The notes under the pieces are model-generated. The model was not told the origin of the DNA. It did not search any database and saw only the letters and a list, made by a program, of their open reading frames with translations. 64,000 nt of DNA from an uncultured Bacteroidales bacterium. Its GTDB lineage: Bacteria > Bacteroidota > Bacteroidia > Bacteroidales > GCA-2748055. The first letter of the stretch is position 1, and each line of letters begins with the position of its first letter. The DNA is taken from the NCBI GenBank assembly GCA_963751705.1, contig CAVVVN010000008.1, forward strand, positions 131,259 through 195,258. Direction: 5' to 3'. A program made the translations under genes and the position numbers. Below are positions 4,834 to 62,197 of this stretch, in pieces.

Positions 4834-4862
4834 AAACTTGAAAACAAAAACAAAACCCCTAA

Positions 4863-6686: not shown

Positions 6687-6831
6687 GTCAATTCAGGAAT
6701 TTCCGTTTCCGGATTTTCCTAACCGATTAGTTGTTCCAGGATACAACTCCCCTGTTCAACTTCACGGATTTATATGTCTTGCGGTCATAGGACCGTCTTA
6801 ATTTCTAATCAAAATTTCCAATTAATCCGAT

Positions 6832-6957
6832 TTACCTTGTTGGAGGATGTACCAAATCTTCAACAGGATCTCCTTTGGACAGTCCACCTTTCAAATAATT
6901 CAGTTCAGTTTTCTTGATAGCATCGTTTGCAAATGATTTCAAATTGACAGTTTTCAT
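6832..6957 (-). CDS. Unannotated 41-aa peptide with a Bacteroidetes GG-type leader (putative exported/modified peptide precursor)
   Basis: Hand translation of the minus strand from ATG 6957 to TAA 6832-6834 gives MKTVNLKSFANDAIKKTELNYLKGG|LSKGDPVEDLVHPPTR. The leader matches the pattern M-K-x-x-x-L-x-x-F/L...L-x-K-x-E-L-x-x-I/L-K-G-G of GG-leader natural-product/bacteriocin precursors. It is too short for the ORF track. Confidence 0.5.
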   Translation of the reverse strand: MKTVNLKSFANDAIKKTELNYLKGGLSKGDPVEDLVHPPTR

Positions 6958-7023
6958 GGCTTTTCAATTAGGGGTTCAACTTCTCTTTGTTTTTGTTTTC
7001 AATAGTTAATTCCAGAAAAGCAG

Positions 7024-7032
7024 CAAACGTTA
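7024..7032 (-). promoter_or_regulatory. Candidate Bacteroidetes promoter (-7 box TAACGTTTG) for the GG-leader peptide
   Basis: The minus strand reads gggTAACGTTTGctg (plus-strand caaacgtta at 7024-7032), which contains TAnnTTTG. A TTTA sits ~21 nt further upstream. About 67 nt from ATG 6957. Confidence 0.3.
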
Positions 7033-7187
7033 CCCGGAAAAGTGAACTTTTTTTAAACTTTTTTTCTCACACAAGTGCATATGATTGATTTTATGGAGTT
7101 TAATTGCAAATATAAAAATCGGCCATTTATCAGAATTACTTGCATCCTATCCCATTATTTCTTTCATTTACGCTATATTCTTCATAA

Positions 7188-29842: not shown

Positions 29843-29891
29843 TAAATACTGACTCGATTTTCTGTATGCTCTATTCACGTTTTTCTGGCTT

Positions 29892-37411: not shown

Positions 37412-39721
37412 TTACTTAGGACTTAAAGGTCTGTTTTCGAATCCAGTTCCCCATGCTTCATTTGGTTTGGATCCCATCTCAAATACTAACTTGCCTCCAG
37501 CTTGCAGGTCACTTGCATATATCCAGCATTTAGTCAGTTCTTTTCCATTTAAAAATGCCTTCTGCACATATATATTTTCCGGGCTGTTATTCTTAGTTTC
37601 AATTACAAACTTACTTCCGGGATAATATTTTGGATCAAGTGTAATCTCGATTTTATCGAATAGTGGCGATCCGATTTCGTAAATTGGATTTTCGCGACAA
37701 CCTCCATCCAATTGAAATAAACCAATGCTGGTCATTACATACCAGGCTCCCATCTGCCCCTGATCTTCATCCCCTGGCCATCCATTATAGGGATTGTCGC
37801 CAAAATATTCCTGTATCATTAAACGCGAATATTTTTGGGTTAGCCAGGGTTTTCCCGAATAGTTAAATAACCAGGCTGCCTGCATGTTGGGCTGGTTCCC
37901 TACATTTACATATTCCGGGTGATAAAACTTCTTTTTGCGTGATTCAATCATCCCATGCTCCAACCGGTCGTTAAATGTACCTTCACCCATCAAATCAATT
38001 AGCCCATAAATATCCTGCGGAACAAACCAGGTGTATTGCCAGGCCGATCCTTCACAAAACCAGGTGGAATGTTGTAAGGGGTCAAAAGGTTCCATCCAGC
38101 TTCCATCAATATACCTGGGTCTCATAAATTTGATTTCAGGGTCAAACATATTACGGTAGTTTTGTCCCCGATTCATAAAATATTGATAATCTGATTTTTT
38201 ATCGAGCTGTTTTGCCATTTGAGCTACACACCAATCATCGTAAGCATATTCCAGGGTATTGGATGATCCGGCTTCAGACCATCTCCATCCGGCCTCCACC
38301 GGAACGTAGCCATGTTTCATGTAGGGTTCTAACTGACGGTTTCCAACAAAGCCGCCACCTTCGTGGTTACGTCCGGGGACGGTTTGCAGCTTGTACATGG
38401 CTTTGTATGCCTTCTCAACGTCAAAGTTGCGAATGCCATGCTGGTAGGCGGCAACAATGAAAGGTATTTCGTGAGAAGCCACCATAATTCCCGAGTATTC
38501 AATTCCGGTAGGACCTTTGGGTAACCATCCTCCGCGATCAGAAATTTCAAGCATGGAGTTCACCCATTTATTAGTTAAATCAGGTGAAATCATATTCCAC
38601 AATTGGTTTATGTTCCAGAAAGTAGTCCAGAGAGCATCGCACCCATAAATTCCATTGTCAGGATCATCAAGAACCTGTACCTTTTCGTACATGTCCCGAT
38701 ACATTCCATTCACATCAGAGAAATCTGCCCGTGCTGTATAGGTGCGATATAAATTTGTATAGAATTTTCGCTTATCGGCCTCTTCTCCTTCTACTTTAAT
38801 TTTACTCAATAAGTCATTCCACACTTCTGCTCCATGAGCTTTACAGGCTTCGAAGTCCCATCCAAAAGGCTCATTCGATTCTTTTTCAAGGTTTAACCGG
38901 GCTTGTTCGACACTAACAAAAGAAATTCCTGTTTTCAGAAGAACCTGCTCTCCTTCGTTTGTCGCAAACTCAAGATATGCACCAAAATCACCATTTCCAT
39001 AGAAAGTGGTTTCATCACTATCCGGGGTATTATTTAAACCTCCCCAAGTACCAATTGATGTAAATGGTTTGTTCAGTTTTGCCACAAAATAGATGGTATA
39101 ATCATTTTGTAAACGACAATTAATTCCCTGTCCCATTTGAGTACTATGGCCCACAATCTCTGTATCACTTATCTTTTCAACTTTGGTGTCGTATTGCCGA
39201 TACCCGTATTCTGTTGGAATTGTAAGATCAAACAGGATACGTGATTTCTTTGCTTTTGGATAAGTATATCGTTGAAATCCGGTACGTTTGGTCGCAGTTA
39301 TTTCTGCCCGGATTTTGTAGTCTTCTAAGGTGACAGCATAGTATCCGGGAGTGGCTACTTCTGTATCATGACTAAACCGGGAGCGATACCCCGAATCCGG
39401 ATCTTTTGGATGACCCGGTTCCGTTTTTAACTTGCCGGTTGTTGGCATAGTTAACAAACCGCCCATTACCCAGGAATGAATATGACTAAACCCTGCAATA
39501 TTTTCTATGGAATATTCGTATCCTGCTTTCCATCCCTGCGTTTGGTTGTCGGGACTTAAATTTACCATTCCGGATGGCATGGTTACTCCCGGGAACAGCA
39601 TCCAGCGGGAATCTGCTGTGCCAATCATAGGGTCGACATAATCAACTGCTTGTTTTGCTTGTGCTAAACAATTTATTCCTGATAAGAATAACATTAGAAT
39701 AAGTGCCATAATATTTTTCAT
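37412..39721 (-). CDS. GH92 alpha-mannosidase
   Basis: 769 aa, signal ..NCLAQA. YVDPMIGT, SHIHSWVMGG, NVGNQPNMQAAWLFNYSGKPWLTQKY, and [13 protein letters not shown]. Confidence 0.9.
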   Translation of the reverse strand: MKNIMALILMLFLSGINCLAQAKQAVDYVDPMIGTADSRWMLFPGVTMPSGMVNLSPDNQTQGWKAGYEYSIENIAGFSHIHSWVMGGLLTMPTTGKLKTEPGHPKDPDSGYRSRFSHDTEVATPGYYAVTLEDYKIRAEITATKRTGFQRYTYPKAKKSRILFDLTIPTEYGYRQYDTKVEKISDTEIVGHSTQMGQGINCRLQNDYTIYFVAKLNKPFTSIGTWGGLNNTPDSDETTFYGNGDFGAYLEFATNEGEQVLLKTGISFVSVEQARLNLEKESNEPFGWDFEACKAHGAEVWNDLLSKIKVEGEEADKRKFYTNLYRTYTARADFSDVNGMYRDMYEKVQVLDDPDNGIYGCDALWTTFWNINQLWNMISPDLTNKWVNSMLEISDRGGWLPKGPTGIEYSGIMVASHEIPFIVAAYQHGIRNFDVEKAYKAMYKLQTVPGRNHEGGGFVGNRQLEPYMKHGYVPVEAGWRWSEAGSSNTLEYAYDDWCVAQMAKQLDKKSDYQYFMNRGQNYRNMFDPEIKFMRPRYIDGSWMEPFDPLQHSTWFCEGSAWQYTWFVPQDIYGLIDLMGEGTFNDRLEHGMIESRKKKFYHPEYVNVGNQPNMQAAWLFNYSGKPWLTQKYSRLMIQEYFGDNPYNGWPGDEDQGQMGAWYVMTSIGLFQLDGGCRENPIYEIGSPLFDKIEITLDPKYYPGSKFVIETKNNSPENIYVQKAFLNGKELTKCWIYASDLQAGGKLVFEMGSKPNEAWGTGFENRPLSPK

Positions 39722-39779
39722 ACGCCGATTATTTGAATATTTAAATCCAATAAAAATCTCATAAAAGTGTCAGGATTGA

Positions 39780-42701
39780 TTACCACTTCACTTTAATAAA
39801 TTTCGTTTCATAGGGAAGTAATGCCACGCTGGCAACATCATTCGGTGATTCTCCGAGTACGTCAACCTCCTGCGTTTGAAAAGTGTTGATCCCTTTTACT
39901 GCAAAATTTGTTTGTTCCCCATTTAGTTCGCGTAAGTGAAAGATAACGGCATTTTCACCGGTCAGTGGTTTTGAATTAACCAATAATACATTGTTTGGGA
40001 ACTCCTCAAATACAGATTCAAAGTCATTGTTACGCTCAGTCTTTCCTGCAGGGATGACACGGCCTAACAAGGGGATCCTTGCATTCCAGCCAAATTGAGT
40101 TGAAAAACTATTGGATACATCGGCGGAAGAAGTAAAGTAATAGGTCCATTCAAACTCACCACGTTGGTCTACTGCAAAGTTTGTAACCCAGTAATTGTTC
40201 ATGGGCCAGCCAATCACATATGGTTTTTCAGGTTTTGCTGAAGCGTCGTAGCGCCCGGTGTTAATCCCCCCAAACTGCATCAGTGCGGTTTCGGGACTTC
40301 CAAAAACCAATTGTGTATCCTCATTTTTTACCGACACAAAATTCTGTACGGTGTTCCAGTCATTTGATGATCCGGGAATTTGATCTACTCCTGCTTCAAT
40401 CACCCCACCCTGGACTTCAAAATTGATCTTCCCATTTTCAAGTTGAAAAGGGAATGCCGCATAAATTGATTCCGGATCAGTAACGGGCTTTTTAACGACG
40501 TTGTAAACAAAGTCAATCCTTTTTGTTGTGTTATAAAGCCTGATTCCCAGCTTAAAACCCTCATCGCCATAAGCGGCCATTTCCATTTTCCCGGCAAAGT
40601 GCATCTCCTTCCAGATGGGCTGATTTTCAATTCCTTTGAAAGCAAAATTCGCAAGGCCATATCGCTTGTAGTCCTGCATCCACTTACGATCGGGTTCCCT
40701 CCTTTCGACCAGATGGCCTTTGTTTATTTCCGCCCTGTTTCCTAATTGTTCGTAAATAATTTCACCCAGTTTCCAGGGTGCATTTTTATCGACAAGTTCT
40801 TTGTTTAGTTCTTTGTCGATCAAGCTTGTAACAACTCCTTTTTTCGTGTCAACCACAATTTTGTACCACTTATTTTCCAGGGAAGAAAGCTCATTTGTAT
40901 CCATTTTCACTCTCTTTCTGCTGGCATCTTCATTGACTTCTATCCGTAACTGCTTACAGCCAAAAGCGGGAACATCATTCACCCAAATCAGCCAGTATGC
41001 ACTACCTCCGTGAGCTTCGTACACCTGTGCGGGCATTATGTCCCCTTTCTCATCTATGATCTTAAACTCCTTATTTATTGGAAGTTGCTGCTCGTCTATA
41101 TAAACCTTCATGCAGGCACTCCGTTTCCATGCCATGGTGTTAAACACTGCGATACTTGGCACATCAAGTTTAGGAATGTATTCCTGCAACAGGCCCATCG
41201 CCTCTTCATTAACAGAGCGAGCCCTGCGATGAGCTTCCCAGGCATAGGATTCTTTCAGAGCCCTTTGTTCCATAGATCCTTTGCTATAGGGGCGGCTAAT
41301 ACTTGCATGAAATCCAAAGGTATGTTCGTCGTAAAACAGGATGGCATCATTCACAGCAAAGATCCTTTCGTCAATCTCAGCTGGCATCTTTTCCCCAAGT
41401 ACTTTAGCCATGCTCAATGCTTCCTGGGACGCAATAATATCCACATGGGATTCCCTCGATTTACTAACCTCTCTTGCACCGGAACCAAACCCATCGGTCC
41501 ACCAATCGGGCCAGGCAGCACGATAAACTTCTAATTCATCAGCATGTTTTTCTTCAATTTCTTCGAAAAATTCGTATGCTGTTGCGGTTTTTATTTTGGG
41601 CCAATCATATTTCTTGTTCCATTTCATTACCATCTCACAAGCACTTTGTGATGGGGGGGAATTATCAGTTGTATATCCTGAATGCTGAATTGAAGCAATA
41701 TCAAATGGATAGCCTAATTCATATATTTCTGCCAGATATATCAACATTTTCTTTTCAAAATTTTCAAAATCATCTCCATGAATTCCGAAAAAATTACCGT
41801 GCATGTAGTGTTCGGCACGGTGAGCCAACATTCTTTTCCCTGAAGGTGATTCCCACCAAAAAACTGTTGGTTTATCAAAGGGAATTAAAGCCCGGTGCCC
41901 ATGAGTTCCCATATTCAGGTATTTTACGCCCAATGTATTATAGTAATCGCTAAAACACCAGCCAATACCATTCACATCATTTTGCATGGCTACTTTTGCC
42001 TGTAAGCCGTGCTTACGGAACTCTTCAAATGGTTTTAAAGAAGATGCGTACGTTTGTTCATCTGGCATTTCGTCAAAGTTCAGGTACATGGCGGCCAGTT
42101 CTATGCGGCCTTCTTTTACTCTTTGCTTCAGGCGGTCAATCTGTTTTTGAGGCCTTGAGATCAGATATTTTTCCACCGGCCATGTGACTTCACAGGTCCA
42201 TCTGAATTTTGCAGCATCTGGATAATCATCAGTTTGATCACAATAGTCGAGTGCATAATCAATAAACCTTAAATGCTCCGCTAAAATATCACTCTGGGGG
42301 CGTGTATACCCAATATCCGTATGCGTGTGTTGCACAAAATTCACCCGCCATTTCCGGGAAGGCATAGCAGTTGCTGTTATGGAAGTTGTTTTATCATCAA
42401 CAAGCAGTTTTAAGCCTGTTACCTTCCGGCTTTTATTAGCTTTGGCAAAAAAGAACAGGTCGTTATTTCCCTTACGCAATCTTTGTTTGATTATCACGCG
42501 GTTGCCCTGTTTGATAATGGCTTCTGTGTTGTTTTCCCCCTCATACGCGACCTTACACAATATGGGTAACTCCGTCTGATTATTCTTTAGTTCGGCTTGT
42601 AAAACCACAGCTTTTGTTATTGTAATTTTGTCTTCCGGTATTCCGGAAACAAAACCAGAACAGATAATTAAGAGCGTAATAATAATGGTTAGTTTTGTCA
42701 T
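39780..42701 (-). CDS. GH38-type alpha-mannosidase, copy A
   Basis: 973 aa with a signal peptide. Metal-site-like VNFVQHTHTDIGYT. Large multi-domain architecture. Colinear without indels with 59255-62176 (constant offset 19,475 nt). Confidence 0.8.
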   Translation of the reverse strand: MTKLTIIITLLIICSGFVSGIPEDKITITKAVVLQAELKNNQTELPILCKVAYEGENNTEAIIKQGNRVIIKQRLRKGNNDLFFFAKANKSRKVTGLKLLVDDKTTSITATAMPSRKWRVNFVQHTHTDIGYTRPQSDILAEHLRFIDYALDYCDQTDDYPDAAKFRWTCEVTWPVEKYLISRPQKQIDRLKQRVKEGRIELAAMYLNFDEMPDEQTYASSLKPFEEFRKHGLQAKVAMQNDVNGIGWCFSDYYNTLGVKYLNMGTHGHRALIPFDKPTVFWWESPSGKRMLAHRAEHYMHGNFFGIHGDDFENFEKKMLIYLAEIYELGYPFDIASIQHSGYTTDNSPPSQSACEMVMKWNKKYDWPKIKTATAYEFFEEIEEKHADELEVYRAAWPDWWTDGFGSGAREVSKSRESHVDIIASQEALSMAKVLGEKMPAEIDERIFAVNDAILFYDEHTFGFHASISRPYSKGSMEQRALKESYAWEAHRRARSVNEEAMGLLQEYIPKLDVPSIAVFNTMAWKRSACMKVYIDEQQLPINKEFKIIDEKGDIMPAQVYEAHGGSAYWLIWVNDVPAFGCKQLRIEVNEDASRKRVKMDTNELSSLENKWYKIVVDTKKGVVTSLIDKELNKELVDKNAPWKLGEIIYEQLGNRAEINKGHLVERREPDRKWMQDYKRYGLANFAFKGIENQPIWKEMHFAGKMEMAAYGDEGFKLGIRLYNTTKRIDFVYNVVKKPVTDPESIYAAFPFQLENGKINFEVQGGVIEAGVDQIPGSSNDWNTVQNFVSVKNEDTQLVFGSPETALMQFGGINTGRYDASAKPEKPYVIGWPMNNYWVTNFAVDQRGEFEWTYYFTSSADVSNSFSTQFGWNARIPLLGRVIPAGKTERNNDFESVFEEFPNNVLLVNSKPLTGENAVIFHLRELNGEQTNFAVKGINTFQTQEVDVLGESPNDVASVALLPYETKFIKVKW
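40531..41483 (-). repeat. Near-identical core of the GH38 duplication (copy A side)
   Basis: Aligned by eye to 60006-60958. I find only 4 substitutions in 953 bp (40761, 40767, 41015, 41046). 41047-41483 is a 437-bp perfect match. The next 60 nt (41521-41580) show 15 mismatches. Confidence 0.85.
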
Positions 42702-42754
42702 GGTTTTAATTTTATCATGTTAGTTATTGTGTATTCTGCTACCTGAAGATAACC

Positions 42755-45031
42755 CTATTTCCCCCATTCCAAGTTGGGCCTTGGTCCCATCTTCAGAATT
42801 AGCGAGCCACCTTTAATCAGGTCTGAATGATTAAACCTGGGGGAATCCAATTGCTTTCCATTTAAAACAGCCGATTGAATGTATTTATTCTTTGCAGATA
42901 CATCATTGGCTTCGATATAAAATGTCTTGCCATTTCCCAGGTCTATGCTAACCTTATCAAAAAGCGGACTCCCAATATCATAAACCGGACTTCCCGGACA
43001 AACAGGATAAAATCCCATTGCACTGAAGATATACCAGGAAGACAACTCTCCTTCATCCTCATCACCACATATTCCTAAAGGGCCATCATTATACCATATT
43101 TTCATGATATCCCTTACTCTACGTTGCGTCTTCCATGGCTCGCCGGCATAATTGTATAAGTAAGAAATGTGAAAACCAGGTTGGTTTCCATGGCTGTATT
43201 GTCCGATTAATCCTGTCCCGTCAGGAAACTGATTAAGGAATCGATACTTTGATCCTCTGCCGTATTGTGTCTGAAACAGAGCATCCAGCTTTGAAATGAA
43301 CTTCTCCCTTCCTCCCATAAGTGTAATGAGACCTTCAACATCCTGGGGAACATGAAAAGTGTAGGTCCAGGCGTTTGTTTCCGTATAATAGTCGCGTCCG
43401 CCCTGGCCTCCACTCCAAATGGGATCCAACATCTTGTCATTAAAAACCCAATTCCCATCCGCAAGCTTAGGTGCCATAAAACCGATACGGGAATCATACA
43501 GATTCTTATAATTCTGGGCCCGCTTCGTAAAAAGGTCGTAATCCTCCTTTTTATGTAAGGTTTTGGCCATCTGAGCCATGCACCAATCATCGTAACAATG
43601 CTCCAATGTAACCGCTACGGCCTGTCTTTTTTCGAAATTTTTTACCTGCGGAACCCATTCCTCCTGTCCCAAAGCGAGTGCCGGAAAAAATCCCTTTTCA
43701 ATATAAACGCTATCCAATTCGGTCAGAGGACCATTTTGCCAGGGAATCATTGTAGCCTGCAGTGCATTTTTTTTCATCCCTTCATAGGCTTTTTCTACAT
43801 CAAAATCCCTGAAACCCTTAAAATAGGCATCTGTTATGGTCACGATTTCATGTCGCGCAATCATCACCCGCCGTTTTAAGGCAGCATCACCAAGCCACCC
43901 GGTTTGTTCATACATGCGCAGATAAGAGCGAATAATATCATTTTGTCTTTCAGGCTCCAGAAGCAGACCTAAAGGGTACAATGATCTAAAAGATCCCCAA
44001 CTTTCACCCATCTGGTAAAAGTCGTGTCCATCAGTGGAATGAACCTGATTATCGAACCCGCTAAAATATTGTCCATATTCTGAGATATTCGTAGTTTTTC
44101 TTCCCAGAACCCGATACATAGCGGTGTAGAATATGGTGCGTTGGCTCTCTGTTCCTCCCTCGATTTGCACTTTATTCAATGCTGTGTTCCAGATGTCTCT
44201 TCCGATTTTCTTTATACGCTCAAAATCCCAGTCTGGAATCTCCCTTTCTAAATTGAGTTTGGCCTGTTCCTCACTTATGAATGAGAAGCCTACCTTAACC
44301 AGAATCTGTTCCCCCTCATCGGTAGGATATTTGGCATAAAGGCCAATATTTTTTCCTGATATAAGCTTCTCACCCCCTGATACATCTTTGCCTTTCCAGG
44401 TCCCAAAAGTGTTGATAGGTTTGTGGAATCTTGAATAGAAGTATATTTTTCTTGGAACGTCATCACCCCGTGTGGAGATTTGATACCCCTCGATAGCATC
44501 ATTGCTTACTATCTTCACAGCTGCATCCTGGAGCAATCCAATCAGTAGATTGGAATTTTCAGACTGAGGGAAGGTGAAGCGATAGATTCCAGAATGTTGA
44601 GTAACAGTATATTCAGCCTCGATATCGTAATCTTCCAGAAGAACAGAGTAGTAATAAGGAGTGGCTTTCTCAAGATCATGGTCAAAGCCCGAAGCGTTTT
44701 TATCCGGATCAACGGAGATATCTCCTGTTGTGGCCATGATCGTAAAGGCCCGGACTGAAAAATCGTTTGACATTGAATTTGCAGAAAAGGCATAAATCTT
44801 ATCTGCAAGATATGTATCTCTGATTCCGGGAGTCGTTCTCTGGGTCAGTCGAATCATCCCCCGTGGTAACTGAACATCGGGTGTCGTGGCTTTAAGAAGA
44901 TGCCCGATTGAACCTATATATGGATTCACATAATCCACCAGCTCCTGGCCATATAGGAACTTAGGCATGGCAGTGAAAATCAGACAGAAAGCAATTGATA
45001 AAGTCGTAAAATGACAGGATTTTGTTCCCAT
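42755..45031 (-). CDS. GH92 alpha-mannosidase (divergent member)
   Basis: 758 aa. YVNPYIGS, SHGNQPGFHISYLYNYAGEPWKTQRR, and GDEDEGELSSWYI (the usual GQM is replaced by GEL). Confidence 0.85.
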   Translation of the reverse strand: MGTKSCHFTTLSIAFCLIFTAMPKFLYGQELVDYVNPYIGSIGHLLKATTPDVQLPRGMIRLTQRTTPGIRDTYLADKIYAFSANSMSNDFSVRAFTIMATTGDISVDPDKNASGFDHDLEKATPYYYSVLLEDYDIEAEYTVTQHSGIYRFTFPQSENSNLLIGLLQDAAVKIVSNDAIEGYQISTRGDDVPRKIYFYSRFHKPINTFGTWKGKDVSGGEKLISGKNIGLYAKYPTDEGEQILVKVGFSFISEEQAKLNLEREIPDWDFERIKKIGRDIWNTALNKVQIEGGTESQRTIFYTAMYRVLGRKTTNISEYGQYFSGFDNQVHSTDGHDFYQMGESWGSFRSLYPLGLLLEPERQNDIIRSYLRMYEQTGWLGDAALKRRVMIARHEIVTITDAYFKGFRDFDVEKAYEGMKKNALQATMIPWQNGPLTELDSVYIEKGFFPALALGQEEWVPQVKNFEKRQAVAVTLEHCYDDWCMAQMAKTLHKKEDYDLFTKRAQNYKNLYDSRIGFMAPKLADGNWVFNDKMLDPIWSGGQGGRDYYTETNAWTYTFHVPQDVEGLITLMGGREKFISKLDALFQTQYGRGSKYRFLNQFPDGTGLIGQYSHGNQPGFHISYLYNYAGEPWKTQRRVRDIMKIWYNDGPLGICGDEDEGELSSWYIFSAMGFYPVCPGSPVYDIGSPLFDKVSIDLGNGKTFYIEANDVSAKNKYIQSAVLNGKQLDSPRFNHSDLIKGGSLILKMGPRPNLEWGK

Positions 45032-45085
45032 TTTTGAAAGATTTTTCAGTTTATTAACATTGATTGATTCATCTATTGCATTCGT

Positions 45086-46294
45086 TCAAGAATTGTACTT
45101 GTTTTTAAGGTATATATAGCATTTTTGAAATTCATGGATAAGACCTGCATCTTCTTTCGGGTCCATTCCACAAACCTCCTGAAGAATATAGGAAACTCCC
45201 TGCGCTTTGTATGCTTCAAAAAGGCGGTCCGGTTCAGACATTTCTCCATGCTCACCTGCAGCCCTAAAGAAAAATGCGCTGGCCATAGCTTCCAAAATAA
45301 GACCATAGGGTTTATCCTGGGTTTTGGCCAAGCGGATAATCCCCATAAAGCGATCGTCTGCTCCTAATTTACGAATACGATCCTGTCCCACACGGAATAT
45401 GGTATCCTGAAGTGCCCTGTTTTTAAAACGAAACAAAAGATTATCGATATGTGTATCCAGGTCCCTTGCACTAAAATCGTCAGAATAGATCCTTTGCAGC
45501 ACACTTGCAGCTTCTTGCATCACTTTCCTGACAGCCTTGTAAATAGCTTCATCTTCTAATACCTCATAGATGTATGTTGCACCGGGATGATGCAATGATC
45601 CTATATAAGCTGCCGTAGCATGCCCCAGGTTATGAATAAATGCCTTACGATCTACCCAGGCCTTAATGTTTTCTTTTGGGGCCAGCCCTGTCACCTGTGG
45701 AATACTCCCTTTAAATCCTCTGGCATCAAGGATCAATGTATTATAGCTTTCAGCATAAACTGCCAGGGGATCAAGGTCCAGTTCCGTTTGTTTCATAATG
45801 GGAACCATTTTTCCAATACTGGTTTCTACAAGGCCCACCAGTTTGTCCAATGAATAATCTGAAGGCAGATAGCCTATTAACTCTTCATGAAAAAATTGGG
45901 CAGCCGAACGTAAATTCTCAGCAATAATTATATCTAAGGGCTTGTTCTTGTCTTCCTTGTAGCGCAATAACAATCCTTCAGCGATGAGCGGAATAATTTT
46001 TTTCAGTGCGTTTTTCCCTGCAGAGACCGCAATAATCGAAGACCTGGATACCTCCCTTATTACAGATCCATGATCAAGCCCGGAAATGGCCCTTACTCCT
46101 GAAACCTTAATAGTTTTCTCCTCATCTCCTTTTATCAGCACCCTATATTCCCCATGCTTGTTGAGCAGGTCGATAAGGTTCTGATCAATATCTGAGAATA
46201 CAACTTCATACCCGGAAACCCCAAACAGTTGCCCAATGAATGAACGTCCAATCTTTCCTGCACCGAAGATTAATATCGATTTAGGACTATTCAT
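45086..46294 (-). CDS. Mannitol-1-phosphate 5-dehydrogenase-like (mannitol dehydrogenase family) oxidoreductase
   Basis: 402 aa. The N-terminus ILIFGAGKIGRSFIGQLFGVSGYEVVFSDIDQNLIDLLN closely parallels the MtlD Rossmann start (HFGAGNIGRGFIG..). Its start overlaps the PfkB gene stop by 8 nt. Confidence 0.65.
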   Translation of the reverse strand: MNSPKSILIFGAGKIGRSFIGQLFGVSGYEVVFSDIDQNLIDLLNKHGEYRVLIKGDEEKTIKVSGVRAISGLDHGSVIREVSRSSIIAVSAGKNALKKIIPLIAEGLLLRYKEDKNKPLDIIIAENLRSAAQFFHEELIGYLPSDYSLDKLVGLVETSIGKMVPIMKQTELDLDPLAVYAESYNTLILDARGFKGSIPQVTGLAPKENIKAWVDRKAFIHNLGHATAAYIGSLHHPGATYIYEVLEDEAIYKAVRKVMQEAASVLQRIYSDDFSARDLDTHIDNLLFRFKNRALQDTIFRVGQDRIRKLGADDRFMGIIRLAKTQDKPYGLILEAMASAFFFRAAGEHGEMSEPDRLFEAYKAQGVSYILQEVCGMDPKEDAGLIHEFQKCYIYLKNKYNS

Positions 46295-47468
46295 TTATCT
46301 GTTCTTTGTATTTCTCATAATAAGGATGAATTAATTGATATTTTTCGCCTGGCTTTCTTTCAAAATATGTGCCGCCCATATAGAAGCATGAATAACCTCC
46401 GGAAACAACTCCCCACATACAGGCCTTTTTTAAATCCAATTGTTTTTCCTCTCGAGAAAGTTGAGAGATAATTGAATAAATAACACCTCCCGCAAAGTTG
46501 TCACCACAACCCGTGGTATCTCCCAGGTGAAAATTCTTCAATTCGTCATATACAGCCTTGCTGACAGGCAACTCAAGATCTCGAATTCTTCTGAAAATGC
46601 TTTTTTCTTTTGCATACAAGTGAATATTCCTCGAACCATTTGTGACTATTACAGCTCCAGTTCCATTTGATTTGAAAAACTCCAATGCATCGCTAATTGC
46701 TGTTTTACCGCTTAGTCGCAAGGCTTCTTCAAAGTCGGCGATTAGGAGATCTATGTGGGCATAACTTTCAATACTCTCACCAAGTGGCCATGCTTGCTCT
46801 GGATTAGCTTTCTCATTACGAAAATCATATACAGTATTTACAATTGTAATACACCCTTTTGACTTTGCCTTAATAAGTATAGCTGTAAGATGATCGTGAA
46901 TAGACGGAACCAGTGCTGTACCTCCAAATACCACCAGATCAGAACCGAAAAAACGATCATCCAATGATTCAGCTTGAAGGTTCCATGCAGCTCCTATGGT
47001 ATTGATAAAAATACGTTCTCCCGCTCCATTGTCATAGGCAGGATCGGACAACACAATGGTGGAAGGCGTCACCTCATCACCTAAATGATAGTTGTCAGTC
47101 AATACCGGCGTTTTCTTTATTGCTTCCATCAGATAGCTGCCATCCTTGTCCCTACCCCCTCTTCCATAAAAATGAAATGTAAAATTCCCCTCATAAGCCA
47201 TTTGAGCTGCATGAATTATCGCAACTATGCCCGGACCTCCAATGTTGATCTTATCTGCAGGTCTCATATTAGTCAATTCTTCAAGCACTTCCTCAAGTCC
47301 CTTCCCCATATAGGATTCAAACTCCTCTTTAAACACCAGGCGACCTGGAATCAGGCCACCGTCACCTCTTTTTTTTGACTGGCAAACTGAGAAAAGTTCT
47401 GAATTAAAAGATATATGGTTGTAAACCCTGTCAACCAGGCAACAACCAACTCCTGAAACGCGAATCAT
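46287..47468 (-). CDS. PfkB-family carbohydrate kinase (long form)
   Basis: 393 aa. PfkB signature GDTTGCGDNFAGG and a GG dipeptide region (NIGGPG). Longer than typical fructokinases or ribokinases. Confidence 0.75.
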   Translation of the reverse strand: MIRVSGVGCCLVDRVYNHISFNSELFSVCQSKKRGDGGLIPGRLVFKEEFESYMGKGLEEVLEELTNMRPADKINIGGPGIVAIIHAAQMAYEGNFTFHFYGRGGRDKDGSYLMEAIKKTPVLTDNYHLGDEVTPSTIVLSDPAYDNGAGERIFINTIGAAWNLQAESLDDRFFGSDLVVFGGTALVPSIHDHLTAILIKAKSKGCITIVNTVYDFRNEKANPEQAWPLGESIESYAHIDLLIADFEEALRLSGKTAISDALEFFKSNGTGAVIVTNGSRNIHLYAKEKSIFRRIRDLELPVSKAVYDELKNFHLGDTTGCGDNFAGGVIYSIISQLSREEKQLDLKKACMWGVVSGGYSCFYMGGTYFERKPGEKYQLIHPYYEKYKEQINE

Positions 47469-47470
47469 TT

Positions 47471-48145
47471 TTATAAGTAATTTAGGTAATCTGATATAAG
47501 CAGGTGCAGGGGAGTTTCATCCTCCTCTATGGTCGGGAACCTTCCAACTTGCTCAAAAAAGCGATTGTCAAGGCTGTCATCATTTACTGCACTTACTTCA
47601 CCTACAAGCACTTTCCCTTTTCCAGGCTCCCCATAGAACCGGTGGTAGAGGCCTTGTTCGAGACAAATACTTTCTCCAGGTGTCAGGGTGATTTTATCAC
47701 CAGCATTCAGGCTTCTGATGATACCATCGGTTTTTACTGTAAAAGATTGATCCGAAAGCCTTTCATTTTCATCCGAATCATACAGCTCGATGATCAGGTT
47801 TCCACCGCCACGGTTGATGATATCTTCCATTTTGCTCCAGTGAAAATGCATGGGGGTCTCCTGCATTTCTTCAACGATCATGGCTTTTTCAGCATAAGGT
47901 TTTTTGTCTAATTTCATGTTCCCGTTACGCAGTGTAAAAAGAATGAGTCCGCGATTATAAAATTCTCCGCTGCCAAAATCAGTCAGATCCCAGCCTAACA
48001 TGTTGTCAACAATTTCAGAACAGGTTTCATTCTTTCCTCTCCAGTCCTCCGGATTCCAATAAGCAAAGGGGGGAAGGTGAAAATTCATTTGTCCGAAAAA
48101 GTCTTTCGATTGCTTAATAAGCAGGTTAATTTCACTTCTTTTCAT
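47471..48145 (-). CDS. D-lyxose/D-mannose ketol-isomerase family cupin
   Basis: 224 aa. MKRSEINLLIKQSKDFF..FHLPPFAYWNPEDW and PMHFHWSKMEDIINRGGGNL, as in the YdaE/Z5688-type lyxose-mannose isomerases. Confidence 0.75.
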   Translation of the reverse strand: MKRSEINLLIKQSKDFFGQMNFHLPPFAYWNPEDWRGKNETCSEIVDNMLGWDLTDFGSGEFYNRGLILFTLRNGNMKLDKKPYAEKAMIVEEMQETPMHFHWSKMEDIINRGGGNLIIELYDSDENERLSDQSFTVKTDGIIRSLNAGDKITLTPGESICLEQGLYHRFYGEPGKGKVLVGEVSAVNDDSLDNRFFEQVGRFPTIEEDETPLHLLISDYLNYL

Positions 48146-48168
48146 ATCAGTCTAATTTTATCTCGTCT

Positions 48169-49980
48169 TTATAATGACAGTAAATAGGCTACCATGTCAT
48201 CTATTTCCTGCTCACTGAGTTCGGATGTCTTTCCATGTCTATCATCCGGATTATAGATTGTAAAAACTTCACGCAGGGAAACAGCCCGCCCGTCATGCAG
48301 GTAAGGCGCCGTCCGCCAGGCTTCAATCAATGACGGGGTATCTACTTTTTTCCCAACATCCTGCCCCAGGGTTGTACCCAGATCGTACATATTCTTATCG
48401 GTATAAAGAGGCGCCGGATGGCACTGTCCACAACCCAGCTGTTCATATATCTTTTTTCCGCGTTTAGCAGCCTTCCCAAGCTTTCCTTTGATTAAAAAAG
48501 GGCTCCTTTCCGGCTCCAATGATTTCAGGTAAGCATCAATGGCTTTGGCATCCTTTTCGGGACGAACTTTAAATTGAATATGCCTAATACCTGCCCGAAC
48601 GCCTGTCTCTCCATCGGCACGTACACCCAGCCACATGGCCCGGGGGGTTTTATGTGCCCATATCATCGACTTTACATTTTTAGGATTGCCCATGCCATCG
48701 TTAAGAAGGTCCCAGTTCAATCCATCGGTGCGGGCATCGGGGTGACAGGTCGCGCAACTAAGCCAGTTCTGGAAACATAAGGATGCATCGTTGAAGAAAA
48801 TCTCACCCTGTCGCTCTGCCGTAATCGGAACCTCTGGAGCCAGCTGGTAGTATGCCGTTTGAATATTGTCCGGATCGGAGAAATCGAGCACTTCCAGGTC
48901 ATCAGAAAAATAATGGGCAACATAGACCGTATTTCCATGCACAGCAATGGCTCGCGGACCATTCCCGTTTAGCTTGATCCGCTTGCGTATATCCTGCAGA
49001 AACGAAAGGTTATTGTGTGTGTTGAGATGCACCTCCTTTGTCGTATTCCCTACTTCTGCTTCCATTTTGCGGGTCATCTCAGACAGGTTTATCAGGCTGA
49101 TTTCATGATTCCCTGCCGCGCTTACTATCATTGTTTTACCATCCCCTGAAAAACCAATAGCCCAGGGATTCGTGAAGCCCCGATCTACATCATCAAGCAG
49201 AACCGTGTATTGCAACGATAAGTCAGAAACACGGATGACACTGAGTGCATCTGTAGAAATCCACCCTCGTGCCAGTTGCGTCGTCGGTACAAAATAACGG
49301 GCCATTAAATGGGTCACATAAACATACTTACCGTCTGGAGATAGTTTAAGGCTGCGTAATCCTTCCGCTCCGTTTACGAGTGGAATGGTGGTCACTTCAA
49401 GGCTTTGGGTGTTAATTACCGAAACCCTGGAGGCGACATAGTCCAGATTGGCAGCTCCATCAGGGATATGGTTGGCAACAAATAAATATTTCCCATCGGG
49501 GGTCAGGTCGGCTGCCACCGGTTCACGTAATACCGGAACACGTGCAATCGCTTTGCCCTTCTTCAGGTTAATGATCGACACATCGTTATTGAAGCGGTTA
49601 CAAACATACAATGTTTCACCATCGGGGCTAAGTACGGGCGACATTGGGGTATGCCCCACGGGAATTTCCTGCTTAAGCCTTCCTGTTTCCGAATCAATTT
49701 GATATACACTCCCATTATATCGCCCGGCCGTCACAAACAAATCTTTCCCATCTGCAGCCGGGATCACTCCGGTAGGTTCTGAATTCAATGGGAACTCATG
49801 AAGCACTTCTTTTGTTCCGGCATCCACACAAAGAATCTTTTTACCGGTGGCTGCCGTTACATAAATGGTTTGCTTATCCGGACTCAGATCAATGTCACAG
49901 GGCGACAGATAATTCTGCGCCAAAGCGGCCGGGCAGCTAAAAAGCAATAGTAGTACAGAATAAAATACTTGCTTTAACAT
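48169..49980 (-). CDS. Fusion of an N-terminal YVTN/lactonase-like beta-propeller with a C-terminal di-haem cytochrome c peroxidase/MauG-family domain
   Basis: 603 aa with a signal peptide. Repeats LSPDKQTIYVT, LSPDGETLYVCN, LTPDGKYLFVAN and LSPDGKYVYVT. CxxCH at 48742-48756 (CATCH) and 48418-48432 (CGQCH). CCP hallmark TPSLIEAWRTAPYLHDGR. Confidence 0.8.
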   Translation of the reverse strand: MLKQVFYSVLLLLFSCPAALAQNYLSPCDIDLSPDKQTIYVTAATGKKILCVDAGTKEVLHEFPLNSEPTGVIPAADGKDLFVTAGRYNGSVYQIDSETGRLKQEIPVGHTPMSPVLSPDGETLYVCNRFNNDVSIINLKKGKAIARVPVLREPVAADLTPDGKYLFVANHIPDGAANLDYVASRVSVINTQSLEVTTIPLVNGAEGLRSLKLSPDGKYVYVTHLMARYFVPTTQLARGWISTDALSVIRVSDLSLQYTVLLDDVDRGFTNPWAIGFSGDGKTMIVSAAGNHEISLINLSEMTRKMEAEVGNTTKEVHLNTHNNLSFLQDIRKRIKLNGNGPRAIAVHGNTVYVAHYFSDDLEVLDFSDPDNIQTAYYQLAPEVPITAERQGEIFFNDASLCFQNWLSCATCHPDARTDGLNWDLLNDGMGNPKNVKSMIWAHKTPRAMWLGVRADGETGVRAGIRHIQFKVRPEKDAKAIDAYLKSLEPERSPFLIKGKLGKAAKRGKKIYEQLGCGQCHPAPLYTDKNMYDLGTTLGQDVGKKVDTPSLIEAWRTAPYLHDGRAVSLREVFTIYNPDDRHGKTSELSEQEIDDMVAYLLSL

Positions 49981-50038: not shown

Positions 50039-52678
50039 TTACAATTTCATTAAAAAAGATGCCGGAGCATATGTATTCAGTTCAAAGGAAAATTTTCCGT
50101 TTTTCACTTCAATAGGATCACCTTGTTTTTCACCACGCAGGGTAAGAGGTTGAACAGACGAAACATGCATTCCTTTGGGTAATTTTACACTACATTTCCC
50201 GGAACTACCAGCTTGTTCCCACAGGCGAAGAATGGTTCCTTCTCCATCCGGATTATCTCCAAAGGCTGTTACCAGAATCCCTTCCCGGGAAAGGGTCAAT
50301 CCCTGGTTCTTACTTTTTAACTTGCCGGCTTTCCCATCTGCTGACCCAACCAGTAAGGGCAATCGGGCCTCCCATGATTTTTTTGTCAGATTCATAAGCG
50401 TTTGTTCATTCTTTGATTTGGCCCATATGCGAACCCGTTCTGTCCACGATCCCTCCTGCCACAGCGGGAAATTGGTATTCCACATGTTGTTGTATAGATT
50501 GACAAAGACCGATGCTGTGCTTGGAACATAATCCATGGAGAACTTCCACAATCCGGGTTCTCCAAAACTCATTATGGGCGAATCCATTGCCGACAATACC
50601 ATTCCTGTATTATCGGCTTGAGTAAGTGCAGCTCCTGTATTTACCGACATTAAATACCTTCCGGCCCCGGGAATGATATCGGTGGCCGGATTAATGGGGG
50701 CCCCTAATCGCCCAATAGTGAATGTGGGATTATCCACAGCAAAGGGGAAACACAACCAGCCACCCTCTGCATGTTTTTCGGCCGTTTTGTTATCGACTTT
50801 CCATTCAATATCAACATAGGCTGCGTCGTGTGGAAAGGTAAAAACCAAAGTGTAATTATCTGCAAAGCCCCGGGTATCTGTTGCTGATAAAACAGCAACA
50901 TCTGCAACATGGGTATGTGATACTGATAATTCCCAATTCTCAGGGGTAAAAGCCCAATAGGGTACTGTATCAGCTTTCGGCATTCCCGGTTTTCCGAAAT
51001 CAACCAAACCCCAACTATCCTTAATCCGGTTGTAGCTGTTCATCCATCTGTCAACTTCAACAGAACTAAAACGCTCGTGTAAAAACTGCCCTATGGCATA
51101 TGCAGAAGATTGATCTACCAATTCACGCTGGCTCTTATTCTCCTTTAAAGAAGAAACACCCCCTCTTGTCAGATCGAAAACAGCAGTAAAATGTGGTGTG
51201 ATAAGCGTCTTTTTTTTATCAGACGAAACTTTATCTTCTTTTAGGTCCTTCTCAGAAATCGTAATGTATCCACCTGCGGGAACGTCTTTGACAAATAAGG
51301 TTCTTTCATCTCCCCAGGGCAGTCTTACCATCCCGGAACGCTTCCAGGGGAGGGCATTATAAACCACAAAGCGCCTGCCGGGAACATCCACCGATCTTGC
51401 CAGTAAGTTTAGCCGGCTATCCAGTTCAGGGGATACAATGTCATTTGCATTATGGATGTATTGGCGATGAGCATCGTAGGACTTTAACCATTTTGCTTTT
51501 TTTCTCGTTGGTAAGCCCGGGATATTTTCATCCTCAGCTCTGAGCTCGGCATTAGCTTCTAAAACCCATTGTTTCCACTCATTCCCATATATTTTAAGTG
51601 GCCCATATGCAGAAGCGCTTCCCCAGGTATGTTCGCCATACAAAAGACTTTGTTCATAAGCCTTTGCAAGTTTTTCGCTTAAAGGCAGGGTCTGAATTCC
51701 CCAAATTCTCATTTGAGTATTCAGGGCATCTAAAGCAGGTCCCAGGGGACGAATATTACGGGCAATTTTCGATTCCTGAGGATTTGACATTAATCCGTGT
51801 ATCCATGTATCCGGTGTATCTCCTTTAACAACGGGCAAATCAGGGTTCTCTTCAAGCAAGGCTTTTGCAAAATCATCGAGGGTAGCGAAATGGACTTTTA
51901 CTCCGGACATCTCTTTTTCTGCATAAGCCAGAAGTTTATCAATATCTTGTTCCGTTGGTGGTCCATGATTGTCACCTGTCATCTGCATGGCCAAATAATT
52001 CTTATAGGGCCAGGTTTTAGGGGGTTTTATATCCGATCCATATAAGGATGTATAATGACAGAGTATTTTAGAACCATCGGGGCCTTCCCACCAGAATAAT
52101 TCAGGGAAACGGGGATAATTACTCGCCGGATTACAGCCCAGCTGCAAGAATTTTATTCCTGCATGATGCAACAAAGTAGGCAATACCCATGAATGGCAAG
52201 GGACATCCGTCATTTTTGCACTGATGGGCAAGGGTAGTCCGTACATGCGGTTAACTGCAGAGGAGTATCCTAACCCACGTACCAGATCTTCGTAATCAAG
52301 CGATCCGGTATGCAATGTGCCGGGAAGCCCGTGAACCACCAAAGAACCTTCTTTTATTGCTTTTTCAATCCTGACTTTACGTTCCGGAGTCTGTAAGGGA
52401 CCAAGAATTTGAGCTTGTAATGGCCAGCCGGCTACTGTCCACGAAAAATGTTTATCTGAGGGCTGCTGTGCATTTTTCTCGATCACATCTAATGATTTAT
52501 CCATCATTTCCTCCCGGTAACGTTCAAAAACATTCTCCGGCAGATCGGTATATCCTAAATCAAAGTGCGTTTTAAACACGACCCAAACATCCGTGACCTG
52601 GGACTTTTGGGCAAAACAATTCATAGTTGTAAGTGCCAGAATAACGCCGATTAAAGCTCGATTAAAAGTTTTTTTCAT
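50039..52678 (-). CDS. Divergent GH38-like alpha-mannosidase-fold protein
   Basis: ATG at 52678 (MKKTFNRALIGVILALTTMNCFAQ; the track starts at TTG 52705). VWVVFKTHFDLGYTD parallels VQHTHTDIGYT of the GH38 copies, but the first His is Lys. About 880 aa and multi-domain. Confidence 0.55.
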   Translation of the reverse strand: MKKTFNRALIGVILALTTMNCFAQKSQVTDVWVVFKTHFDLGYTDLPENVFERYREEMMDKSLDVIEKNAQQPSDKHFSWTVAGWPLQAQILGPLQTPERKVRIEKAIKEGSLVVHGLPGTLHTGSLDYEDLVRGLGYSSAVNRMYGLPLPISAKMTDVPCHSWVLPTLLHHAGIKFLQLGCNPASNYPRFPELFWWEGPDGSKILCHYTSLYGSDIKPPKTWPYKNYLAMQMTGDNHGPPTEQDIDKLLAYAEKEMSGVKVHFATLDDFAKALLEENPDLPVVKGDTPDTWIHGLMSNPQESKIARNIRPLGPALDALNTQMRIWGIQTLPLSEKLAKAYEQSLLYGEHTWGSASAYGPLKIYGNEWKQWVLEANAELRAEDENIPGLPTRKKAKWLKSYDAHRQYIHNANDIVSPELDSRLNLLARSVDVPGRRFVVYNALPWKRSGMVRLPWGDERTLFVKDVPAGGYITISEKDLKEDKVSSDKKKTLITPHFTAVFDLTRGGVSSLKENKSQRELVDQSSAYAIGQFLHERFSSVEVDRWMNSYNRIKDSWGLVDFGKPGMPKADTVPYWAFTPENWELSVSHTHVADVAVLSATDTRGFADNYTLVFTFPHDAAYVDIEWKVDNKTAEKHAEGGWLCFPFAVDNPTFTIGRLGAPINPATDIIPGAGRYLMSVNTGAALTQADNTGMVLSAMDSPIMSFGEPGLWKFSMDYVPSTASVFVNLYNNMWNTNFPLWQEGSWTERVRIWAKSKNEQTLMNLTKKSWEARLPLLVGSADGKAGKLKSKNQGLTLSREGILVTAFGDNPDGEGTILRLWEQAGSSGKCSVKLPKGMHVSSVQPLTLRGEKQGDPIEVKNGKFSFELNTYAPASFLMKL

Positions 52679-52701
52679 ACCCGTTTCCATTCTATGTAAG
52701 T

Positions 52702-56433: not shown

Positions 56434-56450
56434 CTCGCAAATTTGCATTA

Positions 56451-57746: not shown

Positions 57747-57810
57747 ATTGTATAAGTTATTTTGCAATTACTGAGCCCTCACCGGTCAGTGGTTTTGATA
57801 GTACCCAAAT

Positions 57811-62185: not shown

Positions 62186-62197
62186 TTTTCACGATAG

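Follow-up and report, generated by a model that had tools for sequence, protein, structure and literature searches.

Mosaic identity between two predicted GH38 alpha-mannosidase genes of an uncultured Bacteroidales bacterium points to partial gene conversion

Two genes predicted to encode GH38 alpha-mannosidases (copies A and B) lie intact in what appears to be one very large same-strand mannan-degradation locus of an uncultured Bacteroidales bacterium. The pair is very probably explained by partial interlocus gene conversion between old A and B catalytic lineages. The first-pass annotation of the window (the whole 64,000-nucleotide stretch of DNA analyzed) had proposed that old gene lineages recently underwent gene conversion or recombination with each other, as opposed to a recent duplication of the whole gene. 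This proposal stands: silent-site divergence (pS) is 0.047 in the homogenized tracts versus 0.70 (saturated) in the diverged blocks, segment trees conflict, and the lineages have separate orthologs. Together, the mosaic, the silent sites, its repetition in other assemblies, and the tree conflict make recent non-reciprocal recombination between old lineages a well-supported reading.

The two copies are uninterrupted ORFs in direct orientation, 19.5 kb apart (Table 1); their strand, minus, was absent from the first-pass annotation. Copy B can be taken to extend to 62185 or to 62176, where an in-frame ATG is the equivalent of the copy A start. The claimed colinearity, with a constant offset of 19,475 nt and no indels, was borne out by a constant-offset comparison and by blastn of the window against itself. 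The blastn match (39780-42728 versus 59255-62202, 91.25% identity) contains one gap, located upstream of the start codon. The repeat consists of the gene and ~27 nt of upstream sequence only, ending at the stop codon on the other side, and outside it identity immediately falls to background (~25%). Within the CDS, 253 of 2,922 positions mismatch and there are no indels.

Identity is not uniform, and the differences are strongly clustered along the gene. HMM segmentation resolved five near-identical tracts (97.3-99.3%) alternating with six diverged blocks (61-85%), sharply bounded from each other. The longest perfect run is 437 nt, compared with a maximum of 149 nt in 5,000 permutations, and for third codon positions alone the longest run is 145 sites (permutation maximum, 69). 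Clustering of A/B differences thus far exceeds chance. Several base-level counts made earlier were reproduced: 40531-41483 differs at exactly four sites (40761, 40767, 41015, and 41046), 41047-41483 is a perfect 437-bp tract in the mismatch list, 39960-40395 has seven differences where about seven had been claimed, and the patch between core and second block is indeed diverged, with 35 mismatches in 40398-40530. A figure of 15 mismatches in the 60 positions next to the core is correct for 41520-41579, but the interval it was assigned to, 41521-41580, has 14. The description of the flanks as about 75% identical is incomplete, as additional near-identical tracts occur at 42073-42230 (97.5%), 42327-42548 (97.3%), and, at the 3' end, 39846-39913.

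Table 1. Positions in the window of the two GH38 genes and of the segments that make up their mosaic.
Feature	Copy A or window position	Copy B position	Strand	Gene nt	Residues (aa)	Remarks
GH38 copy A	39780-42701		-		973 in total	ORF list
GH38 copy B		59255-62185	-		976 in total	Counted from ATG at 62185
Main homogenized core	40513-41519	59988-60994	-	1183-2189	395-730	HMM
Second homogenized tract	39937-40397	59412-59872	-	2305-2765	769-922	HMM
Diverged patch within GH38C	40398-40512	59873-59987	-	2190-2304	731-768
Main diverged block	41520-42072	60995-61547	-	630-1182	211-394
Older homogenized tract in GH38N	42073-42230		-	472-629	158-210
Diverged block with H-x-H-x-D motif	42231-42326		-	376-471	126-157
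Homogenized tract, N-terminal beta-sandwich	42327-42548		-	154-375	52-125	97.3% identical
5' end, moderately diverged	42549-42728		-		1-51	Signal peptide, plus ~27 nt of common upstream sequence
3' end, small mosaic	39780-39936		-			39914-39936 diverged; 39846-39913 homogenized; 39780-39845 85% identical

The main core has 7 differences in 1,007 nt (99.3% identity, pS 0.030 by the Nei-Gojobori method) and the second tract 7 in 461 nt (pS 0.060). The patch that separates them is 70% identical, with pS 0.93, and surrounds the family-invariant residues P743, E744, Y747, P751, and F752. The main diverged block, which takes up the last two thirds of GH38N, the catalytic domain, is 77% identical (pS 0.78, pN 0.095), and the block with the H-x-H-x-D motif is 74% identical (pS 0.87). 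The older tract within GH38N has dS 0.17 and no amino acid differences; residues 1-51, at the 5' end, are 84% identical (dS 0.41). It had been suggested that homogenization affects the non-catalytic center and C terminus and leaves the catalytic N-terminal half diverged. This is accurate for the main boundary, which at aa 394/395 coincides with the end of GH38N (Pfam, aa 393), but aa 52-125 and 158-210 are homogenized too, the latter inside GH38N, and the saturated patch at aa 731-768 falls inside GH38C.

In copy A, a predicted signal peptide (Cys at residue 14) is followed by an N-terminal beta-sandwich (aa ~26-118), GH38N (aa 120-393), and GH38C (aa 608-797). PF01074 and PF07748 match copy A with 104.8 bits (E=6.8e-30) and 37.9 bits (E=3e-9) and copy B with 97.4 and 35.1 bits, all above the curated cut-off of 25 bits for each model. 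Searches of the PDB with phmmer and profiles returned no GH38 chain even at E=10, only spurious pentatricopeptide-repeat matches. For the AlphaFold2 model of copy A (pLDDT 85, pTM 0.85), the top Foldseek matches in the PDB are SpGH38 (2WYI/2WYH; TM 0.66-0.71 for 2WYI), 5KBP, and Golgi mannosidase II (E 1e-37 to 1e-29, TM 0.6-0.7). Both the domain models and the multi-domain fold assign the copies to the GH38 family, and alpha-mannosidase activity is predicted. H125, H127, D129, D242, and D346 occur in both copies and do not vary across 37 homologs; by motif resemblance, they may be counterparts of the catalytic residues of solved GH38s. The two proteins differ at 71 residues, concentrated in the signal peptide/N terminus, in two catalytic-domain blocks, in a single C-terminal-domain patch, and at the C-terminal end, so any difference in specificity can be sought in a few testable blocks.

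The locus qualifies as a PUL via its counterpart in a sister strain (L004, outside the window), where SusC-like (1230-4337) and SusD-like (4349-6183) genes lie directly upstream of an FG-GAP gene that is itself followed by copy B. Blastn self-comparison of the window identified no other converted paralog pairs; its seven GH92 genes are 63-74% identical over alignable stretches and lack high-identity tracts.

Purifying selection acts on both genes, and pN is 0.006 in the tracts versus 0.10 in the blocks. Protein constraint cannot account for the mosaic, given the contrast at silent sites, which are themselves homogenized in the tracts. Nor does a nucleotide-level force keep the core constant, since it differs by 10% from the ortholog in R2, a gene of a related species. 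Embedded structured RNA was considered as a source of the nucleotide identity and excluded, as an Rfam search of the window found no structured RNA and the core varies between species. Silent-site divergence falls into several classes (about 0.02-0.07, 0.17, 0.4-0.5, and saturated), which indicates several events of different ages. Base composition was also considered for what it might reveal about a donor or a foreign source. The catalytic block has a GC3 of 0.31 in A and 0.48 in B; genes across the locus span 0.29 to 0.56, which makes composition uninformative on this point.

The first-pass annotation had suggested comparison with orthologs in relatives, and segment trees (neighbor joining with bootstrap) place the window copies, W_A and W_B, in conflicting clades supported at 99-100%. 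For the catalytic segment (nt 630-1182), W_A groups with R2 and W_B with P3 (P0003), from a third organism, each at 100%. For the core (nt 1183-2189), W_A and W_B group with each other at 100%, and at 99% with R2 added. In the patch, W_B joins R2 and P3 (100%) and W_A joins P4 (P0004) and P6 (94%); the block with the H-x-H-x-D motif again pairs W_B with P3 (100%). The two types of catalytic block have separate orthologs: R2 (94%) and P0004 (87%) for the A type, and P0003/L087 (92% nucleotide identity) for the B type. The two cores of this genome share 99.3% identity with each other but 90% with R2, which makes the main event younger than the species split.

R2 is itself composite. Its identity to the window varies from 0.72 to 0.99 along the gene, and its 5' sequence, catalytic block, and upstream context are of the A type, whereas its patch is B-type and its downstream neighbor is that of the B side; it is the one GH38 copy in the 23 kb seen. 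P3, from the only other organism found with the B type, has its B-type catalytic segment in an A-locus context. A protein search with the B catalytic segment for further B-type orthologs gave short fragments only, and the closest (P0138-P0140) are all A-type. Just 14 residues, mostly conservative changes, separate the A-type and B-type clades, and the wider family carries the A-type residue at 9 of the 14 sites, including the otherwise invariant E142 (D in the B type), which makes the B type a coherent, derived form retained by two organisms. Given the single copy in R2 and the A-locus context in P3, A and B may be old resident paralogs or may instead be swappable or imported cassettes, and copy B could be a xenolog gained by transfer and then partly converted.

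The same mosaic occurs in two further assemblies of the same species, GCA_942492075.1 (L001/L004) and ENA ERZ25039603 contig_59742 (L003/L005), each with a contig that spans both copies, which makes an assembly artifact unlikely. Every source is a metagenome assembly, and the core might in principle stem from repeat collapse, chimeric joining, or cross-mapped polishing; the presence of 14 indels and clustered substitutions in copy B of S3, confined to the homogenized region, shows that assemblers struggle there. However, the three assemblies, 0.03-0.4% apart in the flanks, have identical segment boundaries, and contigs of 142 kb to 1.09 Mb traverse both copies and the 16.5-kb spacer. In addition, both ORFs are intact in the window, and the diverged blocks on either side tie each core tract to its own copy. 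We regard an artifactual core as extremely improbable.

Among strains, copy B of S1 has the A state at five sites in a row (gene nt 2805-2890) as well as at 1212, 1218, 1687, 1935, and 2398, and site 1781 is A/A in S1 versus G/G in the window strain. None of the 7 A/B differences of the main core is present in every strain, and the same holds for 12 of the 14 over the two largest homogenized tracts. The window and S3 differ at 5 positions in ~20 kb of flank and at 10 in GH38A, 9 of which match the B state. In the S3 assembly, noise coincides exactly with the homogenized part of copy B, so S3-specific conversions could be polishing artifacts. Overall, the strain-specific patches suggest transfer in both directions, some of them possibly artifacts of this kind, and conversion is probably still operating among strains.

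Alternatively, a recent whole-gene duplication could have produced copies that were first identical, one of which later imported the diverged blocks by homologous recombination with DNA of other species. The mosaic relationship of R2 to the window, its joining of an A-type catalytic block to a B-type patch, the locus context of the P3 block, and the unequal GC3 of the two catalytic blocks would all fit such imports. Yet at least six separate imported blocks are needed, interleaved with untouched tracts, and the best external match to any diverged block is 92-94%, so that no donor is in hand. A single duplication also does not predict that homogenized tracts differ in silent-site age (0.02 to 0.17), and the strain-specific patches show the state of the other paralog rather than a foreign state. 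Import after duplication therefore seems improbable, and we favor gene conversion between old lineages.

Under gene conversion, the catalytic segments of A and B would represent the two old lineages, with saturated silent sites, and the remainder of each gene would have been overwritten by the other copy via homologous, non-reciprocal recombination. The molecular pathway presumably involves RecA and repair of heteroduplex. Several events of different ages would be required, the largest of which would have covered at least 1.0 kb of the core after the split from the nearest related species. Grouping of the core with R2 weakly suggests that this event proceeded from A to B. The 115-nt patch requires an extra event in any scenario.

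Persistence of the diverged catalytic blocks may reflect maintained sub-functionalization of A and B, but a neutral barrier accounts for it equally well. Specifically, a block diverged by ~25% may stop recombination from starting or passing, leaving the homogenized tracts convertible. The minimal processing segment for RecA-dependent recombination in E. coli is roughly 20-30 nt. In the diverged blocks, the maximum length of an uninterrupted match is 6 to 27 nt, being 24 nt for the 553-nt catalytic block and 6 nt for the patch. Such matches are at or below this length and may be too short to start recombination, and the small, mostly conservative set of clade-discriminating residues also accords with neutrality. 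On the other hand, protein conservation within the family is highest in the diverged blocks, which flank the invariant H125/H127/D129, H298/Y299, S341/G342/D346, and Y747, and the B type is derived and coherent. We give the mechanical barrier slightly less than an even chance. A more speculative and rather unlikely possibility is that the GH38 catalytic sub-domain is an exchangeable cassette, with A and B types kept by selection for different mannoside specificities, and that the scaffold evolves in concert and supplies the homology for moves between loci and species. The presence of the B type at the B locus here and in an A-locus context elsewhere, and the A/B chimera in R2, support this. 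If general, conversion-driven modular shuffling would diversify the enzyme specificity of polysaccharide loci.

More broadly, the pair indicates that carbohydrate-active enzyme paralogs of one polysaccharide locus do not evolve independently. Whole-gene trees and percent identities can mislead, as 91% overall conceals saturated segments beside segments that are 99.3% identical. For metagenome assembly, a 1-kb near-identical core amid diverged sequence is a polishing trap, as the noisy S3 copy illustrates; the two genes also offer enzymology a natural series of chimeras. Current understanding of recombination is unchanged by these genes. The phenomenon is of a known kind, clean but ordinary bacterial gene conversion, and what is new is the instance in a CAZyme gene of an uncultured Prolixibacteraceae-like bacterium. 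We found no open-access paper describing conversion events among glycoside hydrolase paralogs of PULs.

Among bacterial paralogs, tufA/tufB of Salmonella and E. coli are a known case of interlocus gene conversion. The release-factor genes RF1/RF2 are reported as another (PMC4530459). The GH38 pair is similar in that the paralogs are dispersed within a single chromosome, segments group by genome and not by orthology, silent sites are homogenized, and there were multiple events. It is distinct in being a non-essential secreted glycoside hydrolase in a polysaccharide locus, and in that conversion is partial, with 11 interleaved segments, the unconverted part being a catalytic sub-domain. The modules of assembly-line polyketide synthases are also reported to undergo gene conversion ("GRINS"; PMC8256042), which likewise gives domain-scale mosaic homogenization in multi-domain enzymes with sharp boundaries near domain borders, but there the partners are modules of one gene and here they are two separate genes. 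A model for HMA4, in which tandem plant paralogues acquire mosaic divergence by interlocus gene conversion under selection (bioRxiv 10.1101/2025.10.29.685298), shares the feature that most of the gene is homogenized and some parts stay diverged; it concerns a plant, is a modeling framework, and takes the new copy to be under selection. Recombination between paralogs during evolution experiments with E. coli is reported to have yielded chimeric genes with deletion of the intervening DNA (PMC13626634). The single GH38 gene of R2 looks like the expected remnant of a crossover between two paralogs, whereas the window retains both copies, which indicates non-reciprocal exchange without deletion. 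Finally, characterized GH38 enzymes (Streptococcus pyogenes SpGH38, 2WYH/2WYI; Enterococcus faecalis, 5KBP/3LVT; Golgi mannosidase II) match over the full-length fold (TM 0.63-0.71), share the GH38N and GH38C Pfam domains, and, by motif resemblance, may share the conserved H-x-H-x-D motif and the later invariant Asp. Relative to these enzymes, the window pair is only 10-13% identical, beyond detection of any PDB chain by sequence or profile, and has an extra N-terminal beta-sandwich.

Comparing the window with itself at a constant offset of 19,475 nt, which aligns its paired GH38 alpha-mannosidase genes (copies A and B), gives ~25% identity up to 39779, which is background, and high identity from 39780 to ~42720, with background again beyond. 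A blastn search of the window against itself joined the two genes in one match (39780-42728 versus 59255-62202, 91.25%), whose only gap precedes the start codon. Copy B has an in-frame ATG (62176) equivalent to the start of copy A. Over 2,922 nt of coding sequence the copies mismatch at 253 positions, 173 of them third codon positions, with no indel. The mismatch list reproduces the counts of the first-pass annotation: 40531-41483 has 4 differences and includes 437 bp of perfect identity (41047-41483), a second block (39960-40395) has 7, and the diverged patch that separates it from the core has dense mismatches at 40398-40530.

Features of the window and segments of the paired GH38 genes
Feature	Coordinates	Strand	Remark
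Copy A	39780-42701	minus	intact ORF, 973 aa
Copy B	59255-62185	minus	intact ORF, 976 aa
Near-identical A/B tracts (HMM)	gene nt 154-375, 472-629, 1183-2189 (core), 2305-2765, 2789-2856		pooled pS 0.047, pN 0.006 (Nei-Gojobori)
Diverged A/B blocks (HMM)	gene nt 1-153, 376-471, 630-1182 (catalytic block), 2190-2304 (patch), 2766-2788, 2857-2922		pooled pS 0.70 (saturated), pN 0.10 (Nei-Gojobori)
Third GH38	50039-52705	minus	unrelated to A/B
Beta-propeller/lactonase-like protein	48169-49980	minus	C-terminal cytochrome c domain
1,250-aa protein	52702-56454	minus	F5/8 type C, hydrazine-synthase-alpha-like and haem-binding motifs
~600-aa protein	23782-25575	minus	zero Pfam matches
~600-aa protein	28073-29878	minus	zero Pfam matches
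Tyrosine integrase	1568-2779		left edge of window; unrelated to GH38 finding
Histidine kinase fragment, TPR proteins, CHAT-domain protein	5792-10031		unrelated to GH38 finding

When mismatch positions were shuffled (5,000 replicates), the longest perfect run averaged 67 nt and never exceeded 149; the observed A/B run is 437 nt. At third codon positions alone, it is 145 sites versus a permuted maximum of 69. A two-state HMM divided the gene into 11 segments. Nei-Gojobori dS is 0.02, 0.03, 0.06, 0.07, and 0.17 for single tracts and 0.41 and 0.49 for the two terminal blocks. Together with pooled pS and pN, these values place the A/B identity at silent sites. The pS/pN values indicate purifying selection on both genes, and the spread of dS points to homogenisation of several ages. 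In one recently homogenised stretch (42327-42548, aa 52-125), 5 of 6 differences are non-synonymous (dN/dS ~1.4), too few for significance; the pattern could reflect relaxed constraint in the N-terminal domain.

We compared, as DNA, the GH38 genes of five more relatives: R2 (L002), P3 (L087), P4 (L007), P5 (L088), and P6 (L006). R2 is ~88% identical to copy A in nucleotides. Over the catalytic block, nucleotide identity is 0.94 for copy A and R2, 0.87 for copy A and P4, and 0.92 for copy B and P3. The two copies share only 0.77, a distance like that of copy A from P5 and P6 (0.78-0.80). Over the core, the copies are 0.99 identical, and the window shares 0.90 with R2, 0.83 with P3, and 0.77 with P4. 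Neighbor-joining trees of the segments (500 bootstrap replicates) conflict accordingly. The catalytic block groups copy A with R2 (100%), then P4 (99%), and copy B with P3 (100%); the core unites the two copies (100%) and joins them to R2 (99%), and nt 2305-2765 also unites them (100%). In the patch, copy B groups with R2 and P3 (100%) and copy A with P4 and P6 (94%). Thus, the catalytic split is older than the splits among these organisms, and the core was homogenised after the window lineage parted from R2. Both can hold only if the copies have recombined with each other, and the proposed gene conversion or recombination between old lineages is well supported by silent sites and conflicting trees.

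As far as can be told from assemblies alone, the mosaic is not an assembly artefact. A 1.09-Mb contig carries proteins identical to both copies. Two other assemblies each have both on one contig, GCA_942492075.1 (strain S1; L001 = A, L004 = B) and ENA ERZ25039603 contig_59742 (strain S3; L003 = A, L005 = B), with segment-by-segment A/B identities like those of the window. Their divergence from the window is 0.07-0.45% over aligned loci and 0.03-0.3% outside the GH38 genes. In copy B of S3 (L005 10010-12930), 14 indels and clustered substitutions, all inside the A-like homogenised region and none in diverged blocks, break the gene into ORFs of 431, 159, and 76 aa. These are probably polishing failures at a real repeat, and a warning for comparisons between strains. 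In L004, copy B has a 1-nt non-homopolymer insertion (at 9663 + gene nt 331) that shifts the frame, so that the gene call starts at an internal Met (861 aa). The cause is a sequencing error or pseudogenisation in that strain.

Exchange probably continues among the three strains. All 7 A/B differences in the core, and 12 of 14 in the two largest tracts, are polymorphic, with both copies alike in some strain. In S1, five successive sites of copy B (nt 2805-2890) show the A state, as do its nt 1212, 1218, 1687, 1935, and 2398. Copy B of the window shares the outgroup state at nt 1218, 1687, and 2857, so these are not new B mutations. At nt 1781 both copies have G in the window strain and A in S1. 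The window and S3 differ at 15 positions in 22.9 kb, 10 of them within the 2.9-kb copy A, where 9 of the 10 equal the B state. Because copy B of S3 is poorly polished, the apparent B-to-A patches of this strain may stem from cross-mapping; the S1 patches are cleaner evidence, both being at assembly level.

Pfam places GH38N at aa 120-393 and GH38C at aa 608-797 in both copies. An AlphaFold2 model of copy A (pLDDT 85) matches full-length GH38 structures (SpGH38 2WYI/2WYH, E. faecalis 5KBP, Golgi mannosidase II) with TM 0.6-0.7 at 10-13% sequence identity; sequence and profile searches of the PDB found no chain related to this clade. The clade (protein A and its homologs in alignment A1) has an additional beta-sandwich at the N-terminus (aa ~26-118). 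The main mosaic boundary, aa 394/395, is the end of the GH38N match. The earlier picture of a diverged catalytic half and a homogenised non-catalytic centre and C-terminus is only roughly right, since homogenisation also covers aa 52-125 and 158-210 and the saturated patch (aa 731-768) sits inside GH38C. Diverged blocks flank family-invariant residues (H125/H127/D129, H298/Y299, S341/G342/D346, Y747).

Why the catalytic blocks stayed different has two explanations that we consider about equally likely. Recombination may be unable to start there, a neutral barrier, as the longest identical A/B runs in these blocks are 6-27 nt. Alternatively, selection may keep them different. Fourteen positions set the six genes of the A-type clade apart from the two of the B-type clade. 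At 9 of the 14, the A residue is also that of the wider family, one of them (E142D) otherwise invariant, making the B type a derived, coherent variant. Judged from sequence, this would fit different specificities, without proving them.

Catalytic type is not tied to locus. P3 (P0003; L087 182-4397, ENA ERZ23498523), the only other gene found with a B-type catalytic block, is colinear with the A locus (window 38510-42710), downstream GH92 included, at 81.6% over 4.2 kb. P4 is an A-type gene after an HZS-alpha-like gene, and P5 lies before it. For R2, we compared L002 4548-14318 (ENA ERZ25039603 contig_32569) with window 39781-48159 and 56449-57767. One GH38 was seen within 23 kb; it has A-type 5' and catalytic sequence and the upstream neighbors of copy A (L002 4548-12921 colinear with window 48159-39781, 91%), yet a B-type patch. 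Directly after it comes the cellulase-like gene that the window has on the side of copy B, and DUF3863 is absent. This looks like what a crossover between both paralogs would leave. Copy B may have long resided here as a paralog, or it may be a xenolog that arrived by transfer and was later converted in part; whichever its origin, conversion between copies A and B is the recent step. A reading in which loci and species exchange catalytic cassettes on a scaffold that evolves in concert seems to us unlikely.

From 10088 to the window end (64000), all sizeable genes share the minus strand, without a break over at least 54 kb. The locus encodes three sulfatases, seven GH92, three GH38, DUF3863/3864, cellulase-like, GH43-like, and GH94/GDE-like proteins, D-lyxose isomerase, PfkB and ROK kinases, mannitol dehydrogenase, and an MFS transporter. 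In a sister strain, SusC/SusD-like genes lie just past the point matching the window end. The gene content of the run points to a very large locus for the use of alpha-mannan that may be sulfated, and per-gene GC3 (0.29-0.56) hints at a patchwork origin. Two proteins with haem or cytochrome c domains, kept beside GH38 genes in relatives (L088, L007), are unexpected redox company for glycan degradation. The two ~600-aa proteins may be uncharacterised carbohydrate-active proteins; that at 28073-29878 has a counterpart (L007 359-1839, 71% nt) in an uncultured Sunxiuqinia sp. MAG. This MAG is the nearest named genome (83% aa), making the host Prolixibacteraceae-like.

Bacterial paralogs are well known to undergo interlocus gene conversion, as in tufA/tufB. 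Our literature search found no open-access report of it in PUL glycoside hydrolases. It is described for RF1/RF2 in PMC4530459 and, as a further bacterial case, for PKS modules in PMC8256042; mosaic divergence under conversion has already been modelled (bioRxiv 10.1101/2025.10.29.685298). The GH38 pair is a well-documented new instance of this known process.
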